Source: Mustelus asterias (lineage: Eukaryota). From it: a DNA stretch of 64,000 nucleotides. Positions 3,090 through 59,218 of this stretch are shown here, piece by piece. The notes beneath the pieces are model-generated. The model saw only the letters and a program-made list of their open reading frames with translations. It was not told the DNA's origin and did no database searches. The stretch spans positions 1 to 64,000 of the forward strand of contig NW_027591308.1 in the NCBI RefSeq assembly GCF_964213995.1. Direction: 5' to 3'. The translations under genes were made by a program, and so were the position numbers. Numbering within the stretch: the stretch's first letter is position 1; the number at the start of each line of letters is the position of its first letter.

Positions 3090-3596
3090 ATTGTACAATT
3101 GTACTCAGTATTTGTTTCAATATTTAATATCAATGCATTATTTAACACATATGTCACAGTTTAACACAGAAAACATCGCTATCACCGGCTCCTGTGAGAT
3201 CGAGTCTGCAGCAATGACACCTGCAGAAATTTAGAAACATCAAGCGTTAAGATGTCATTATCATTTGATTGTAAATAATAGCATTAGGGAACGGATCACA
3301 TTGTAATTTGCAACAAAGCGAAATTAAATTAATGTCGAAGTTGCTTGCAAGAGGAAGATTGTGTAAATTGTTGACTGACCAAGTAAGAGAGCTGAAACAG
3401 TGAGAACTTAATACAAAACGAGACCCTACATGTTAGCAGCAAGTTTATTGCGGAATTAAACAGAATGGGTGAACCTGTAATTGTTTCTGTGAAGATATTC
3501 ACATATATCCGGTCTCTCCAGCGATTGGTTCATTCCTGAAAGAATCAACTGGTGACGTCTAATCAGCTCCACGGCCTCCTGTTCTCCAATTCATCC

Positions 3597-3710
3597 GTCA
3601 CCTGATGAAGGCGCAGCGCTCCGAAAGCTCGTGCTACCAATTTTAACCTGGTGTTGTGAGACTACTCATTGTGCCTACCCCAGTCCAACGCAGGCAACTC
3701 CACATCATGG
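3597..3710 (+). mobile_element. Short element with minimal type I hammerhead ribozyme (family B)
   Basis: CAC-CTGATGA-A-GGCGC-AGC-GCTCC-GAA-AGCT-C-GTG at 3599-3633; 11-bp direct repeat CCAATTCATCC at 3586-3596 and 3711-3721; inverted copy at about 53978-54105. Confidence 0.75.
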
Positions 3711-4124
3711 CCAATTCATCCAATCAGCTCACAGACCCTTTGATCTCCAATTCATTACGTCAGAGCAGCTTCAGCGAATCAGTCAAATTGTTTTTTAGAG
3801 AGACGAGAATTCACTGCAATATTGGCCCCTTACACAGCGTGGGAGGTGATGGCCGTGAGGGGAAACAGTTAATGTTGTTGTAACAATGTCGGAAGTTCCA
3901 ATTCGATAGTTTCAATATTTTGCATATCTCTTTTCATATTATATCAAATTGAAAACATACACAACTAAGAACCAATGTCCCAAAATACCTTTTTTTGATT
4001 TTGGGATGCCTCGCATTTAACATCAGCGGGGTTCTTATCAAACATCACAGCAGCGGGTGGGGGCGGTGGAGGGGGAAGGGGTATGGTTCCATAGATTGAT
4101 CTTCCAGATTCAATATCATCGAGG

Positions 4125-4224
4125 AGATTCTGAACAGGCGTTGGAGTTTGGCGACTCGGGGATTTTCACAGTAACTTAATTTCAGTGTGAATGTAAGCCT
4201 ACTTGTGACTAATAAATAAACTTT
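4125..4224 (+). repeat. Dispersed repeat 3' end (SINE/LINE tail); inverted copy at about 28200-28310
   Basis: GGCGACTCGGGGATTTT...AATGTAAGCCTACTTGTGACTAATA is matched in reverse at 28200-28310. Confidence 0.6.
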
Positions 4225-5044
4225 ATACTTGCCTCAGAATGTTCCTGGAAACATCTCTTTTCTCAGGGAATCCATCTCCGGCCTCAGAATTTATATTTAT
4301 CTAAATTAACTGCATCTAACACTCGTAGGCAATGAGTTTCTGGTTCTTAGCGCTCGCTGCGGAAAAATGTTCCTTCCAAATCTTCTCTGCGCCCGCCTTG
4401 CCAAAAATCTTTAAATTTGCCTCTTCCCCCTCAAAACTTATCCTAATTTAGTCCACCTCGATTAAATCACTCCTCAATCTTCTTCACTCAAATGGAGAAT
4501 AATCGCAGGGTCATAAACCTCGCTAATTTTAACTTTTCTAAACTAAACTTACTTCAAAGAAATTCCTCAATGGAATTTAACTAGAATTTCTCAACTTTTG
4601 AAAAAACATTTCGATGGAACTTGAGTATTTTGTGAACTTCTTTCTACGAAAGATATTTAAATTAAATTCCTTCGCAGAGTTTTACAAATTTTCATCAACT
4701 TATTAGAAACTATTTTCACCATTTTCAAAAATGTAAGATTTCCACGTTATTTATCTAGAAATTCCCAACTTTTTAAAAGATAGCTTAAAATACTTTTTCC
4801 AAATAATTTCACGAAAATTCGTAATTTAAAGAAAATAATTTAAACATACTCAATGAAAGTTTATCAGTGGAATCTTACTTAAAATGGCCAACTTTCTTTT
4901 GAAAATTAATGACCTAAGATAAATTTCTTCATAGAAGGTGACTGGATTGAGTAAACATTTGTCTGAATTGGTTCAAAGTTACTGAAAATACATTTTTTCA
5001 TCGAAACTGAAATGGAGTTTACGAACTATTTTTAAAATTTACAG

Positions 5045-5117
5045 CGAGCCAGCCAGGAGTCGAACCTGGAATCTTCTGATCCGTAGTCAGACGCGTTATC
5101 CATTGCGCCACTGGCCC
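5045..5117 (-). tRNA. tRNA-Arg(ACG), intact
   Basis: Reverse complement GGGCCAGTGGCGCAATGGATAACGCGTCTGACTACGGATCAGAAGATTCCAGGTTCGACTCCTGGCTGGCTCG, 73 nt, canonical vertebrate sequence; T4 run a few nt downstream. Confidence 0.97.
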
Positions 5118-5499
5118 ACATACGTGGAATTTGCAACATTTGCTACATATTGGCCAGACGGTTCAAAGCCGGGCAGAAACCAATACGTTTAAGTGAGGAA
5201 AGGTTGCTTAATTAATATTTTATTTACTGCCATCCCTAATGGCCCTTGAATTCAGTCAATCTGCTGTGTTGGAATTCAGCCTGCTTCTCTGCGTTTAATT
5301 TCCAGCGACAGTAACACGACTCAACCCCTAACTACTCCCTCTGTGAATCCACTGCCGAACATTACCCGAGTAGAATATCTTACAATCAAAGACATTGGCT
5401 CTTAGTTATGCCTAAAAATACATTCAGGGAAAAAGAGAAGTGCTGAAAATTCACAACAAAATGAACAGGAAAGAAGATGCGCTTATTGCGACTCAGGAT

Positions 5500-5990
5500 A
5501 CATTTTATCAGTTCGAGGTGGCTACAAGAGCAGGTCAGAGGCTCGGAAACCTGCGGCGAATAACTCACCTCCTGACTCCCAAAAAACAGACCACGATCTA
5601 CAAGGCACAAATCAGGAGTGTGATAGAATACTTTCCACTTGTCTGGAGGATGCAGGAATTCACCAAACGCACATTAGACAGCACCTTCAAAACCCAAGAC
5701 CACTACCACTGGCAGGTTTGCCCCCACTCCCCCGATCCACTGCATACCCCCCCCCCCCCCTCCCCCCCGCACCTCAAGTCACTCAGCATTCTGATTTGGA
5801 AATATATCACCGTTCCTTCACAGTCATTGGGATAAATTCCTGGAATTCTCTCCCTAACAGCACTGTGGGTGTACCTACACAAATACACTGCAACGTTTCA
5901 AGAAGACAGGTCACCACCACATTCTCAAGGGTAATTACTGATGGGCAGTCCATGCTGATCTAACCAAGCGACACCCACATGAACAAAAAG
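5500..5990 (+). mobile_element. Degenerate LINE 3' fragment (RT C-terminal region, CR1/L2 group)
   Basis: Translation RAGQRLGNLRRITHLLTP..TIYKAQIRSVIEYFPLVW and ..SWNSLPNSTVG. Confidence 0.7.
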
Positions 5991-6377
5991 AAACATCCAG
6001 CCAGTTCCCCGAACCCGCAGTCATGGGGTCAGCTGAAGAGGTGAATGGGGATAAAATGAATGTCCAGTTGCATAGCCAACCCTGTTGAACGTATCTTGAT
6101 TGTCTATCGAATGTGTTGTGCTGATAGATTCCCCGCAGTTTGTGCTCAGGTTCTCAAACTAAACCCCATGAGAACCAATCCCTTCATCTGCACCGCAAAG
6201 AAATAAACAAAATCTGCAATTTATAGAATTTCATAGAATTTTGTGGGAGAGGACGCCACAATGGTTAGATCTGCTGCCTCAGCATGCCAAGTACGTTGTT
6301 TCGATTCCTGGTTTAGTCACTATCTGTGATGATGAAGATTTGCAGCTTTTACAAGCTGCAGCAATAGCACGAATGCA

Positions 6378-6450
6378 ACCCCATTGCCGTAATGGGTAAG
6401 ATACTGGCTTTATAAACCACGGGTTGTGTACTCGAGTCCCATCTGGAGTG
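6378..6450 (+). pseudogene. tRNA-Arg(CCT)-derived pseudogene
   Basis: 73 nt colinear with GCCCCAGTGGCCTAATGGATAAGG...TCGAGTCCCATCTGGGGTG; anticodon and T-loop mutated. Confidence 0.7.
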
Positions 6451-6529
6451 TAGATATCAAACGGTTAGGTGTCCAACGCTGGCAAATGCATTTCCTATAG
6501 ACCCTGGCTGTTCCTGGGAAGATGCATTT

Positions 6530-6655
6530 TGGGTTAGCACTGCTGCCTCACAGCGCCAGGGTCCCAGGTTCAATTCTTGACCTCGGGTCACAGTATGTGT
6601 GGAGTTTGCACTTTCTCCCTGTAGTTTCCTCCGGGTGCTCCGGTTTCCTCCCATA
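6530..6655 (+). mobile_element. HE1-type tRNA-derived SINE, partial
   Basis: GGTTAGCACTGCTGCCTCACAGCGCCAGGG...TTTCCTCCGGGTGCTCCGGTTTCCTCCCA core. Confidence 0.85.
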
Positions 6656-7008
6656 GTGATCTATCTAGATAGATAGTTATATAGTATGCTGCCTTCTGTT
6701 AGGCTTTATATATGTGCTTGTATATAATGCAGTATACTGCAGATTCTGTAAATCTGAAATAAAAACAGAAAATGCTGGGTTATTTCAGTAGTTCTGGCAG
6801 TATCTGCGGAGCGAGAAACAGAGTTAACGTTTCCAGTCCAGATGTCAGATGGCCAACCCGGACACGATGGGCCGAAGGGCCCCTTTCCGTTCTGTAAAAC
6901 TTTGTGCCTCTATGATCCTTTTTCGGAGTTGGCCAGCGGAAAGCAATCCCGCCGTTTGCACCCGAAACAAATCACAATACCTGACTTGGTCAAAAGGAGG
7001 CAATTAAA

Positions 7009-7099
7009 GGGCTCGTCTAGGATTTGAACCCGGAACCTCCCGCATGTCTCATCGACTAAAATACCCGAAGCAATAATCATGCTCTTCGACCAACCAACC
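7009..7099 (-). pseudogene. tRNA-Pro(CGG) relic with 19-nt intron (7045-7063) at position 37/38
   Basis: Reverse complement ...ATGATTATTGC-TT-CGG-G-[TATTTTAGTCGATGAGACA]-T-GCGGGAGGTTCCGGGTTCAAATCCTAGACGAGCCC; 72+19 nt; several stem mismatches. Confidence 0.85.
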
Positions 7100-7744
7100 T
7101 ACCCAAAAGCAAGCGTAAGCAAAATATAGCTCATTTCTCTTTCGCCAATGCAGTTTAGCCATCTCTGATGAAAGCCGACATTGTTGAAATAATCCACCAC
7201 ATCAGCATTTGTGGACTTAAAGCTCCAGCAAAATATCCGCCCAATATTGCTAACTCGACTGGGCGCTTTTGTGTATAAAGTACACATATTACCCGTCAGG
7301 CTACACAAAGAATGCCGAGTGCCAAGCTGAACGAACGAGAATATTTGCAGTATATCAACAGTAATATCAACTTTGAAAACTCATAATATATCTCGTGAAA
7401 CAATATAAGTTTGCTATCAATGCTAAAATATTTCTGTTCCGACATTTGCTCTTTTAATTACATTTTCTCAATAATGTTACTGGCCACGACTGGAGACTGC
7501 AAATAGCCCCGAGCCTGAACGCAACATGGTATCGTCCTGTCCTCTGGTGGCAGAGATATGGAACTACAAAATGCAGCTTTCTCCCACCTATGAATCTTCA
7601 AGACTCATGTTTGTGTTCGACAATTTCCGTCGATTAATTCTTCCGCGTTTTTATTTATTCCCCTTTTCAAATCTGAGACTGCACCTCGGGTGTAGAATCA
7701 TTTTTCATGAATCTACCTCTTCTGGAAAAGGCAAACTTTTCCAG

Positions 7745-7840
7745 ATGTGGCTCATGGAGACTCTGTCACTCAGCCGCGGTCCGCAGCAGTTAAAACAGAA
7801 GAACAGGTGACTTTAAAATGGAGTTATAATACCACATTTT
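7745..7840 (+). pseudogene. TCR V alpha/delta 5' fragment (pseudogene)
   Basis: Acceptor TTTTCCAG then VAHGDSVTQPRSAAVKTEEQVTLKWSYNT, same family as the V at 38670; first Cys replaced by Trp; truncated, no RSS. Confidence 0.7.
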
Positions 7841-8473
7841 ACCCTCTGAAAAGGGCAACATTCTGAACAGGTCAATAAAGTTACTTTTCGTACCTCCCTT
7901 GTTATAAGCCAAAGAAACCAAATTAGTCTGTTAATCCCTGACACTATTCTGATTTGTAACCAATTTGTCCAAACTATGGGTGTTCTCCCGATTTTGTCGT
8001 CCCAGGATTTGAACAGCGAACTCCAGCCATGATTTTCACAGATTTAGCATCATTTTCCCAAATAAATATCAACAGTCACAAAGACCGTGTCTAAAGAGCC
8101 GTAATTTAGATTTTTCGGCAGCATGTGTGTCTTGTTCTGTATTGTAGTGAGGAATCCAGTCAACAGCCTAATTCCAGCGCGCAGAACCCGCCACCAGAGA
8201 GCGCCACATTCTAGCCTGGGTGCCAGAAACTCACGTGATATTATCACTGACACCTGCATGGATGGTAGGCTTGTGAGGTCACAATAGACACAGCCCCCCC
8301 CCCCCCCCCCCAACACCCACAAACACAGACACATAAACTCACACTGACCCACGCACACTGACACTCTCACAAACACACTCACTGCAATGAGCTGAACAGA
8401 GCCCGGGTTCCCTCTCTCCTTCTCAACCTCTGACTCACTCCGTTCCCATTCAGTGAGATAGATTCACTCAGAC

Positions 8474-9023
8474 ATGTTTCTGATCTTCCTGGCGGCGCTC
8501 TTGCACGGTAAGCACTGGGTAACGTACATCAAGCCAGATAAACACATTAGATGGTAATATAATTAACCATCACAATTATCGATGTGAGGGGTGAATGGGG
8601 GTGGGGGAGGTGGGGGTGGGGGTGGGGGAGGTGGGGGTGGGGGGTGGGGGGGGGGGGAGGGGCGGGTGCTGCAGAAACAATCGCAGATACAAACATTAAC
8701 TCTTGATATTTCATTCCTCTACCTTCACAGGCGGACTGTGCGCAGATCCAGTAGCACAGTCATCGCTGCCAATAACCGCATCAGAAGGGGATTCAGTGCA
8801 GTTGGGTTGTGAATATACAGACAAGAATATGTACAGCATGCAATGGTATCAGCAGAAACCGACACAACCAGCGACATGGATTATTACCAAAGCATTAACA
8901 GTGAAGGAAGATGAAGTTTCAGGACGATATCTGGCGGCTTCTGACGCGTCTAAACAGAACGGTTACCTCAATATAAGCACCCTCAGAGTGCAGGACGGGG
9001 CGGTCTATTACTGTGCAGTGAGG
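8474..9023 (+). CDS. T-cell receptor V alpha/delta gene segment, potentially functional (leader exon 8474-8507, V exon 8731-9023)
   Basis: Leader MFLIFLAALLH|GTAAG phase 1; acceptor CTTCACAG; V exon DPVAQ..VQLGCEY..WYQQKP..LNISTLRVQDGAVYYCAVR, open frame with both Cys and Trp. Confidence 0.92.
8590..8667 (+). repeat. G-rich tract (GGGGGT-like runs) in V-gene intron, G-quadruplex potential
   Basis: About a dozen G-runs of 3 or more. Confidence 0.8.
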
Positions 9024-9062
9024 CACAGCGTTAGATTAAAGCTAAAACCCCGTACAAAAACC
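9024..9062 (+). promoter_or_regulatory. 23-bp-spacer recombination signal sequence
   Basis: CACAGCG + 23 nt + ACAAAAACC. Confidence 0.95.
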
Positions 9063-24150: not shown

Positions 24151-27116
24151 TCATTTTTTCATTAATTTCACAATGAGACTCAGTGGATATTTTATCCCGT
24201 TTTTTAGCTCCTGTCTGAACTTCCTCTGGGTCACGCCATAAACAACGGTGTTGGTGCAAGAACTTAAAAGCTGAAGAGTATTCCCGGTTTCTTGTAAAAT
24301 GAACTTTGGGTCATTAAAATTGGAGCCCGAAAAATAATTATTTTTTGTAACTCGAACATACAAGAAATTTACAACATACATTGTCCATAGCAACAAAAAA
24401 CTGCCCGAGATACTGAAGAGTAAAACAATGGATTTTCTCCGGTTCTCCATCTCAGGGTCAATCGGATTTTCTCTATTGCTCTGTTTGCGGAGTCTTTTTC
24501 TGGCTCTATTGGCACCTAGGATGTGTTTAACGGTCAGAGCATTCAGCAGTAACAACAGGAGGAACGGAAGACAAGGGGTAGAAATTCGGTCAAACCAGTC
24601 ATATATTGTCCACCCAAGAGAGGTATAAAATATATCTTTAATGTTACATAACCACGCAACATTGTCCACTATGAGCATCGGTTCATAAGTCAGATAAGAG
24701 GGGATGTTTTTTAAGCAGCTCAGGGCACAAACTGTTCCTATCACCCCCACCGCCATTCTCTCAGTGCAATATTTTGTTTTCAGTTTCGAGCAACAAATGG
24801 CCACAAATCTATCAAAGGTAAAAGCAACCGTTAACCAGACAGAACTGTCCGTGGCAGTGTAAATTAAGATAGAGGTCACAGTACAGGCTGGAGTGGTGGA
24901 AAGTCGACTAAATCTAAAATATATACCGGCAATCCTGTTCAATATCACAGCGGTGATAATGACCAGGAGATCTGTCACCGCCATGGATAACAGGTAACGA
25001 GTGATGCATCTGGATAGACCACACCTTCCTCTGGACAGGATCACAATGGTGACAATGTTAGCTGTAAGGCAGAGAAGAAGTATTCAGGGGAGTTACATAT
25101 GGCTACTGTCAAAAGTTTGTTAACATAAAACACGGATGTTGCACAGCACGATGGCAAAGTTGTAGATTCTGATTCTGATGGACAAATTAGTCTATAAGGA
25201 GGTCGACATGGTTGAAAAAGCTTAACAGGAGCCATAGTTGTAAAGTGGTGTGGGTGATCTTCAGAACTGCATGCGGATCGGGGCACTGAAACCAAACCAG
25301 GACCTCCTCAATCAGTTTAATGAAAGACACCGGTGGCAGGACTCAATGTGTGTCAGCAATTCAATGATTCAGAAATTCTGCTTCAGGAAACGTGCTGGTT
25401 AGATACAGCCGTTAATTATTTCTTTTCATATATCTGGTCATATCAAATTATTGTTCAAAAATCGTTGCATCAGAAACTTATTATCAGATTGTACCGACAA
25501 ACAGATTGTCTGCAAATCTCTCCATAGACTCGGGTGCATTGACGCCTGTCTGTGCACCAACTGTCTGGAATTCTATCCATAGACAGATTTTTTGCAGTTT
25601 ACGAAATGTGAAACACCAGAAAAATTATATCATTCGACACCTTGAGCCTGTTCAACCGTTCAACGACAACATGGCTGATTTGTTTGTGTTTCCAAATTCC
25701 ACTTTCCAATCTACCTCCAAAAACCTTTGATTTTCTTTTCTAACAGTATATCAGCCTCTGCCTCAAAAAGGTCAAAGTCGCCATATCCACTGCCATCTCT
25801 TGCATCGAGTTCCAAAGTCATGCAACTGTCTAGAAGAAGAAGAAATAATCTCCACGTCTCTTGTCTTAACGTGGCTGCCCTTAATTTTGAAGCATTGCCG
25901 CCCCCAGTTCCAGACTCACCCAGAAGATGACATATGATTGCTGCATCCACCTCTTCAAGGCAGTTCAGGATTTCATATACGTCAATGGGTTCACCCCTCA
26001 CTCTTCTAAACACCAGTGGACAATATCTCACACTGCCATAAGATAATACACTCATTCCAGATATCAAAGGAGCAGAGCTCCTCTGATGCATTCACATCCT
26101 TCATCAAAAGGAGACACCAAATCTGTGCACATTATTCCAAATGTTGTCTCATTAATGCGCTGTATGATTGAACCATTACATCCATATTATTTATATATTA
26201 AATTGCGCTCGTAATGAAGGATAGCATTTCATTGTAATTAAATCAGTCCCTGTACATTTCGAATGAAATTTCATGACTCCTGTCATTGTTTTAGATAGTC
26301 AAATCACCCAGAATTCCTCAGAGCGCTTTTCTTGCCACATTTTGAGATGGGTTTACTTCGCCACGCCATTCACCCCCTTGATCTTTATTTAAGCAGCACA
26401 GACTGACTTTCTTTCAATCCTATTCAGGTCCACCATTTCAATTCATGCTTTATGGCATTCAGGGATTCAAACCAAGAAACTTTTTTATCTTTATTTCATG
26501 AAGTATCGCGAATTGCCAGTAATTCAAGGTTATAAGTACCCCTCTGGGGTTTTCATCCAGTTCCCATCCGATCAGGCTCTACCTTTCCGAAAAAGTGAAG
26601 TGGTATTGAAAATAATTGGCAAGGGGAGAAATTGAAGGGAAACACTGTTTTGACAGATTTTATTTTGTGGGACATGAGCGTCGCTGGTTGGGCAGCATGC
26701 ATTGGCCATGTCAAAGGCAACTAGGGATGGGAACAAAGGCTGGCCAGTTATCGACACCCATGTCTCACGAATGAATACAAAAAAGGATTTTGCTCCAATC
26801 TCTCCACTTGCTGTATATTTAAATACCAATTCACCTGTTTCTATCTGAAACTTACTGTTCTCTCCTCAACAAGCGGCTCACCAGCAAGACTTCACAATCC
26901 CACCTAATGACCTTCAATCAAATTTTATTGAAATAAGGGCACTAGTGAAAGAAATCTGAAAACTTCATAAACCAAAGATTTGGACGATTCTGACACTTGG
27001 TACAGGACACAATCTCTTTGGACAACCAGTTGTTGTAATAACTTACCCAGGACACCAACAGCAGCAAGAATCGGATAGTAAATAGCAAGCACTGGATTGT
27101 TTCCTGGGGCATGCAT
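24151..27116 (-). CDS. GPR139-like class A GPCR, intact two-exon gene (exon 1 27047-27116, exon 2 24151-25061; about 326 aa)
   Basis: MHAPGNNPVLAIYYPILAAVGVL|ANIVTIVILSRG..MAVTDLLV..SVWLTVAFTFDRFVAIC..CTNTVVY; GT-AG phase-1 intron; 7 hydrophobic segments. Confidence 0.9.
25600..26175 (-). mobile_element. Old CR1 3' fragment
   Basis: Degenerate PLVFRRVRGEPIDVYEIL. Confidence 0.65.
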
Positions 27117-38236: not shown

Positions 38237-38669
38237 AATAAATAAACCCCACCAGCAACCCCGAACTTCCGGTTACAAATCTAGTCTCACGTGTCTATCT
38301 AAGACACCATTTCGTCCTATCTGAACACTGACTGATCTCAGCTCGGGATGAATCCATTCACTGGCAGGCAGTTCACCTGCTACCTACACCACAGCGCCAC
38401 CGCGGACACAGGGAAACTCAGTGAGAGCATCCTGAGACATGATAGCAAAATATACAGGGTGAAGTTTAAAACGGGTGTCTTCAAATATCCCACTCCCCTT
38501 TTACAGAAAAGACAATGACAAGGCATTTGGGTTGTTTGTGGAATAGTCGTAATAGGTAATTGTGAACCAAACACATTTCATATTTATTTTAATTTTACAA
38601 ACGTGGTTTAAAATTAAATTTTAAGCATTCAGTCGGTCTGATTTGTTTCTGCTTGAGCAGGTTTTTCAG

Positions 38670-38980
38670 ATCTGAGTCATGGAGATTCTGTCACTCAGTC
38701 GCTATCCTCAGAAGTAAAGACGGAAGAAAAAACGTTGAGTTTAAACTGTACCTATGATATTATAATGAGCAACTACGTTTTACCCTGGTCCCGGCAAAAC
38801 ACAAGCACGCAACCTGTGTTTCTATTGAGGAAAAACTCGATATTTGGTGAAGATATAGCAGATTTTGCGAAAAGCCGTTTCTCTGGAGAGCTTCAGACAT
38901 CGAGTAAATTCACCGGTTTGACTATCTCGGGTCTGCAGCTGAATGACGCTGCCGTGTATTACTGCGCTCTCGCTGAGATG
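38670..38980 (+). CDS. TCR V alpha/delta exon, open frame, no recognisable leader (ORF or pseudogene)
   Basis: LSHGDSVTQ..LSLNCTY..WSRQ..RFSGELQTSSKFTGLTISGLQLNDAAVYYCALAE. Confidence 0.88.
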
Positions 38981-39019
38981 CACAGTGATGGAAAGCAGTC
39001 TGACTGCTGGACCAAAACT
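38981..39019 (+). promoter_or_regulatory. 23-bp-spacer recombination signal sequence
   Basis: CACAGTG + 23 nt + ACCAAAACT. Confidence 0.9.
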
Positions 39020-59146: not shown

Positions 59147-59218
59147 GGGTCTATGGTGCAATGGTGAGCACTCTGGACTCTGAATCCAATGAACCTAACT
59201 AAAATATCGGTAGAACCT
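59147..59218 (+). pseudogene. tRNA-Gln(CTG) pseudogene
   Basis: ATGGTGCAATGGTGAGCACTCTGGACTCTGAATCCA; T-loop destroyed. Confidence 0.82.

Follow-up and report, generated by a model that had tools for sequence, protein, structure and literature searches.

Why tRNA introns persist or arise is an open question, and the intron set of animal tRNAs is treated as fixed at four families; according to the part of PMC12530127 consulted, metazoan tRNA introns are essentially absent outside Tyr-GUA, Ile-UAU, Leu-CAA and Arg-UCU. The window studied here (the whole stretch of 64,000 nucleotides analysed, from an elasmobranch genome, G000, of 3.68 Gb in 5313 contigs) carries a decayed tRNA-Pro(CGG) with an insert just 3' of the anticodon. 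A sequence-only reading had taken it for a descendant of a spliced tRNA-Pro family in cartilaginous fish, and the question is whether such a family exists or whether the insert is peculiar to one dead copy. The following features of the window bear on this question.

3174..8599, no strand assigned: block of segmental duplication; 9 other loci match 5509-8599 at 97.8-99.8% identity, and four units align with parts of 3174-7292 at 70-81%
5044..5117, minus strand: intact, intronless tRNA-Arg(ACG), the partner gene in a duplicated Arg-Pro unit
6992..6995, minus strand: T4 run, a likely Pol III terminator, 13 nt past the gene and positioned as in the AGG paralogues
7009..7044, minus strand: tRNA-Pro 3' exon, tRNA positions 38-73, 36 nt, with 4 changes and an intact B box at 7020-7030
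7045..7063, minus strand: 37/38 intron of 19 nt, TATTTTAGTCGATGAGACA, homologous to the 18-nt introns of a family of Pro-AGG genes but longer by one base close to its 3' end, and with G in place of T facing position 34; it holds a T4 run
7064..7099, minus strand: decayed tRNA-Pro 5' exon, tRNA positions 1-37, 36 nt, with anticodon CGG at 7067-7065, G37 at 7064 and 8 changes, including G18 to A, in comparison to the intronless Pro gene

The window copy and its lineage

Set against an intronless Pro gene of this genome, the body of the window copy shows changes at 12 of the 71 positions other than the wobble base (tRNA positions follow our own assignment). One pair is broken in each of the acceptor, anticodon and T stems and G18 is lost, so the copy is not intact as a mature body, in agreement with the decay noted earlier from the letters. 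A cloverleaf fold of the copy was not found, its folding being no better than that of shuffles (z 0.21), and neither ARAGORN at default settings nor Rfam in gathering and E-value modes detected it. ARAGORN with a lowered threshold called it tRNA-Pro(CGG) once the insert had been removed; the low-threshold run over the whole window gave 179 calls, mostly noise, and was left unused. A chance match was ruled out by the Pro(CGG) call, by the body changes numbering only 12 and by reversed-pattern controls, which gave 0 matches across the genome for every Pro pattern. The window copy is a pseudogene, a dead branch of the intron-bearing Pro family described below.

Taken alone, the insert could also be placed at 38/39, as the insert and the 3' half both begin with T. 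Since the inserts of its relatives begin with A, G or C, the insertion site is 37/38, and the earlier placement of the 19-nt insert one base 3' of the anticodon of a tRNA-Pro(CGG) body is borne out by the minus-strand halves and the relatives' inserts together. The anticodon-intron (A-I) pair proposed with U32 stood only in part: A is indeed the third-last base of the insert, but in the family alignment the base that normally faces U32 corresponds to G at -4, not to this A. In a shifted register all 6 types of the window clade pair U32:G, U33:A, C34:G and G35:U, so that the base facing position 34 appears to have changed from T to G together with the change of A34 to C.

In each of the four units that align to parts of 3174-7292, the corresponding place is taken by a Pro-AGG gene that is intact and has an intron, and Arg-ACG was called in three of the units. 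The window insert aligns to the 18-nt AGG introns plus one extra base, and among the flank matches listed outside its own clade 14 of 14 are intron-bearing AGG genes; a separate CGG origin was rejected on the latter ground. A flank tree, midpoint-rooted only, sets the window clade apart from the AGG genes, and the direction from AGG to CGG is suggested by family 7, which has related AGG introns. We infer from these alignments that the window copy descends from an AGG lineage switched to CGG and that it would have been a working CGG gene, later decayed. In this lineage A34 would have changed to C with a compensating change in the intron, one base would next have been gained in the 3' bulge, and body lesions would afterwards have piled up under passive copying. 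The copy has 21 matches in the genome, of which 8, the one in the window included, are identical over 91 nt; identical dead copies point to duplication or assembly redundancy and therefore not to selection. The first 42 nt of the pseudogene occur in seven further places (L014-L020), embedded between unrelated repeat sequence.

Other features were recorded in the window. Two immunoglobulin V-set segments (Pfam) lie at 8700-9062 and 38657-39019 on the plus strand. Both are trailed by a motif that resembles a recombination signal and has a spacer of 23 nt; the heptamer is at 9024-9030 (one mismatch) in the first and at 38981-38987 in the second. The two segments resemble V genes of the T-cell receptor alpha/delta type, set among tRNA genes in duplicated DNA. 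A single-exon rhodopsin-family GPCR at 24151-25083 (minus strand) belongs to a large elasmobranch 'GPR139-like' expansion with 1878 homologues, the best 120 of which are all from sharks and rays; the host was identified as an elasmobranch on this ground. At 59147-59218 (plus strand) there is a decayed tRNA-Gln(CTG) with a damaged T arm.

Intron-bearing tRNA-Pro genes in the genome

Scanning the genome with exact patterns brought up 150 Pro bodies that contain an insert, 24 with the anticodon CGG and 126 with AGG or TGG; 8 of the 24 CGG matches belong to the decayed window clade. The insert measures 13-18 nt among the 100 matches listed of the 126, and the 37/38 introns of the family overall measure 13-19 nt. 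Many unrelated insert sequences occupy this one site among the 150 matches, and ARAGORN recognised 15 of the 16 non-decayed CGG precursors as tRNA-Pro, placing their intron at 37 or 38. The number of matches and these calls refute the idea of a one-off insertion in a pseudogene, or of an assembly artefact; it could appeal to the window copy alone, which is decayed and was overlooked by ARAGORN and Rfam, and hardly any credence is left to it.

Intronless Pro matches numbered at least 10 (5 TGG, 4 AGG and 1 CGG), a lower bound since the exact intronless pattern is longer (35 letters, in comparison to 33 and 30 for the insert patterns). An eleventh such gene turned up beside another locus, and the eleven are intact or near-intact, mostly with close T4 stops. 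The bodies of the intron-bearing family are those of the intronless Pro genes, with the anticodons AGG, TGG and CGG, and the intron-bearing Pro genes did not match the body or anticodon of Tyr-GUA, Ile-UAU, Leu-CAA or Arg-UCU.

In the control scans, inserts were present in 0 of 69 Arg-ACG matches; 99 of the 100 Gln matches listed had no insert and one had 3 nt, with 82 more unlisted. The positive control, Tyr, showed its known intron in 53 of 54 matches. A tandem array with a 1445-bp period at G000:C7:40238239-40356612 holds 45 intron-bearing tRNA-Tyr matches.

The Pro copy numbers are inflated by segmental duplication. Of the Arg-ACG matches, 63 of 69 lie on the same amplified contigs as the Pro genes, so amplification of the region accounts for a good part of the high Pro count, and some of the loci on small contigs are identical to loci on contig C71 and may be assembly duplicates. 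On contig C85 (G000:C85) intron-bearing Pro genes recur every ~640-660 kb, which suggests very large tandem duplication units. The view of the whole family as a tRNA-derived SINE was rejected, as most copies share long flanks inside duplicated blocks; dispersed retro-fusions numbered only about ten, and their junctions all differ.

Copy number that reflects duplication, shared with a neighbouring Arg gene, would also be expected if the Pro genes had once been functional and spliced and most or all of them were now silent relics spread by segmental duplication, the work being done by the intronless genes. The small-contig loci and the 8 identical dead copies of the window clade agree with such silence. 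Furthermore, the listed large-chromosome loci on C11, C12 and C18 run into a SINE-like head and look like retro-copies, and the eleven intronless genes could supply all tRNA-Pro.

Conservation of the bodies, intron pairing and retro-copies

Of the 150 matches 74 were fetched, and with other loci they gave 81 distinct gene types, 70 with an insert and 11 without. Fifty-three intron-bearing types, left after 17 with more decay had been set aside, are near-intact, with 3 body changes or fewer, and in 20 of these 53 the body is identical to that of the intronless Pro gene apart from the wobble base. The family to which the window copy had been assigned thus does include intact intron-bearing genes in this genome. 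Since the scan patterns fixed part of the body, only 38 unfixed positions were measured; at these positions 21 of the 59 pattern-compatible types had no change and 22 had one (43 of 59 with none or one).

In families 0, 2 and 3, with the decayed clade excluded, the p-distance was 0.026-0.040 for the bodies, in comparison to 0.17-0.29 for the introns and 0.09-0.26 for the flanks. The body is less clearly conserved in family 4 (0.094 against 0.17-0.21). Between families the values were 0.064 against a saturated 0.46-0.52, and the introns of different families could no longer be aligned. CpGs of the body were retained at 96 %, in comparison to 53 % in the decayed clade. A T4 run lies within 60 nt 3' of the gene in 41 of 59 types; the 18 of 59 without it include most of family 2. 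Judged from these distances, the tRNA bodies are conserved while the inserts and flanks diverge. Bodies that are near-identical at unselected positions, though the introns of the same genes differ by 17-29 %, and that have kept their CpGs are hard to reconcile with silent relics, which we regard as unlikely.

In eukaryotic pre-tRNAs base 32 pairs with the third-last base of the intron and a short helix continues along the anticodon (PMC10275265 and PMC10485636, in the parts consulted). In a sample of 47 distinct types of anticodon plus intron, positions 32-35 pair with intron positions -3 to -6 at 91.5 %, in comparison to 46.7 % (sd 3.6, maximum 59.6) in 5000 shuffles, a test that overstates independence since the 47 types come from only about six lineages. 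All four positions are paired in 33 of the 47 types; none of six other registers gave more than 2 such types. A purine at -3, forming the A-I pair with pyrimidine 32, is present in 40 types and missing in 7; CGG family 3 is mostly without the standard A-I pair because most of its members have T at -3.

Intron base -5 tracks base 34: it is T in 17 of 18 AGG types, A in 14 of 20 TGG types and G in 5 of 9 CGG types. Such tracking in three pair types, and again in the window clade, is not predicted by gene conversion or by promoter function; these, or an insulator function, would have to keep the bodies if the Pro genes were tRNA-derived elements, transcribed and left unspliced. The 34/-5 pair is broken in lineage L058 (a mispair at 34) and in several recent anticodon switches, e.g. 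L023. L023 and L079 (G000:C71), a TGG and a CGG gene, both have an intron, lie 1.4 kb from each other and are nearly identical in introns and flanks; by this comparison they are the result of a recent anticodon switch without a compensating intron change. Flank cluster family 1 proved to be a false group, held together by shared SINE sequence only, and was not counted as a lineage.

Dispersed over large chromosomes are several copies that keep only a few leader bases and a trailer before passing into a retroelement. The trailers of two families were used as queries, and 20 of the 23 matches to one and 16 of the 34 matches to the other were fetched. In L116 (C2) the family-2 trailer runs to a T-rich end and is followed by a SINE; in L151 (C14) and L136 (C4) the window-family trailer runs to a shared T-rich end and a retroelement follows; L119 (C6) has kept part of the intron. 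The SINE at these junctions is presumably HE1. As the trailers of some retro-copies are almost identical to those of their sources, the sources appear to have been transcribed recently, which also speaks against silent relics.

One of the copies, L046 (C3), is a full Pro-TGG from which the intron is exactly missing, followed by a 43-nt family-2 trailer with 88 % identity. This trailer scores 61, a value that compares with a maximum of 17 among the remaining intronless genes and of 34 among shuffles, and it stops at the same base as in L116; a LINE reverse-transcriptase fragment follows, which we take to be CR1. Homology of L046 to family 2 ends at the leader, where 4-8 nt match. A target-site duplication was not found around L046. 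The 20 family-2 loci that were fetched include 16 further complete genes, all of which have the intron. A variant in the 5' exon of L046, at a CpG site, is shared with the intron-bearing L060 and absent from the other 10 intronless genes.

L046, a single case, is most simply read as the likely retro-copy of a spliced precursor with untrimmed ends; the short leader match and the missing target-site duplication speak against this reading. It could also have arisen if the template was switched, within the 3' exon common to both, to a transcript lacking the intron, and an origin of this kind would suit unspliced elements, as would the intron kept in most of the site-spanning retro-copies (L056, L057, L094, L022, L021, L119 and L136). 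The variant shared with L060, CpG site though it is, and the tracking of base 34 argue against them, and we consider a wholly unspliced family very improbable.

A 354-bp inverted duplicate adjoins L046 (L152:5033-6100, G000:C3) and starts exactly at the first base of the 3' exon, which is the 3' splice junction. L047 (G000:C3), a Pro-TGG that has no intron, bears the short trailer found in the L048 genes and then joins a SINE-like head; by its structure it is a product of the same retro-fusion route acting on intronless precursors.

Proposed processing and known systems

On these comparisons it is very probable that the Pro genes (AGG, TGG and CGG) with 13-19-nt introns at 37/38 are a real, presumably functional fifth spliced tRNA family in a vertebrate. 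The descent from a spliced Pro family in cartilaginous fish, proposed earlier for the window copy, holds insofar as the family is present in this one genome, with splicing predicted, and the host is an elasmobranch; CGG is however not the sole anticodon, and the lineage of the copy is AGG.

Pol III is likely to transcribe the intact members, and TSEN and RTCB are likely to splice the transcripts to a mature tRNA-Pro that matches that of the few intronless genes and would be used in translation; for the TSEN catalytic family one exon above the cut-off was found in the genome. Pol III would read through the intron to the T-rich stop, the 3' end of the intron would pair with U32-G35 leaving a 3-nt bulge, and TSEN would cut and RTCB ligate, at least sometimes ahead of trailer removal. 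Segmental duplication would have multiplied the Pro genes. The splicing mechanism itself would be the known one.

How the family arose can be proposed only tentatively. A tRNA-Pro intron may have been gained de novo in a shark ancestor and have spread to three anticodons with compensating changes; most tRNA-Pro would now be TSEN-dependent, intronless genes of the same sequence would persist, and the retro-fusions would preserve unspliced and spliced-untrimmed precursors. We give this scenario somewhat less than an even chance; the alternative to a gain in this lineage is that the intron was retained from older chordates. If it is true, a vertebrate tRNA intron gain has been caught unfixed and offers a natural test of the role of tRNA introns. 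A fifth family with intron-bearing and intronless genes for the same mature tRNA would make intron-dependent modification (e.g. of A34, G37 or position 58) testable in one genome, and likewise the effects of introns on expression and the mechanisms of their gain.

A description of vertebrate Pro introns was not found in the open-access literature; GtRNAdb, RefSeq annotations or tRNAscan-SE databases may list these genes already. Sharks have abundant intron-containing tRNA loci according to the consulted part of the Squalomix preprint (10.1101/2025.06.08.657570), and its counts very likely include Pro loci since tRNAscan-SE with a score of at least 50 was used. The words 'proline' and 'Pro' have 0 occurrences in the main text of that preprint, and isotypes may be given in a figure or in the supplements; the part consulted, unlike the present analysis, contains no isotype, helix, selection or retro-copy analysis. 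Pro is unnamed in the text of PMC12168002, as far as consulted, and in its supplement AGG, UGG and CGG rank 8th to 14th of 45 anticodons by intron share, as read from axis labels only and with all eukaryotes pooled, some animal share being possible. The consulted parts of PMC8450103 and PMC4536317 add nothing on Pro.

Pro-UGG of yeast and intron gain are treated in PMC4090602, which was consulted in part. The elasmobranch family is like the budding yeast tRNA-Pro(UGG) family in its isotype and canonical intron, whereas the yeast family is fungal, has one anticodon and carries introns in all members (PMC4090602). The Pro introns of yeast and fish are too short for homology to be read from their sequences. 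Mammalian tRNA/LINE-1 and U6/LINE-1 chimeric retro-insertions resemble the elasmobranch retro-fusions in that a small Pol III RNA is fused to the 5' end of a retroelement; their tRNA parts are mostly antisense halves (PMC11838501, in the part consulted), whereas in the elasmobranch a precursor in sense orientation, trailer included and intron present or absent, is joined to a SINE or a LINE.

There is also a close likeness to the TSEN-spliced vertebrate families Tyr-GUA, Ile-UAU, Leu-CAA and Arg-UCU, with which the Pro family shares the site 37/38, short introns of varied sequence, the bulge-helix-loop and the pair of pyrimidine 32 with a purine at intron -3 (PMC10275265 and PMC10485636, again in part). 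Intron-bearing genes are mixed with intronless ones, as in human Arg-UCU and Leu-CAA in the literature consulted. In this genome the Tyr introns, read by eye, are 13-16 nt long and have G at -3 in 11 of 12 distinct sequences, and Pro matches outnumber Tyr matches (150 in comparison to 54, obtained with different patterns). Unlike in the four known families, the isotype in the elasmobranch is Pro and all three of its anticodons are included.
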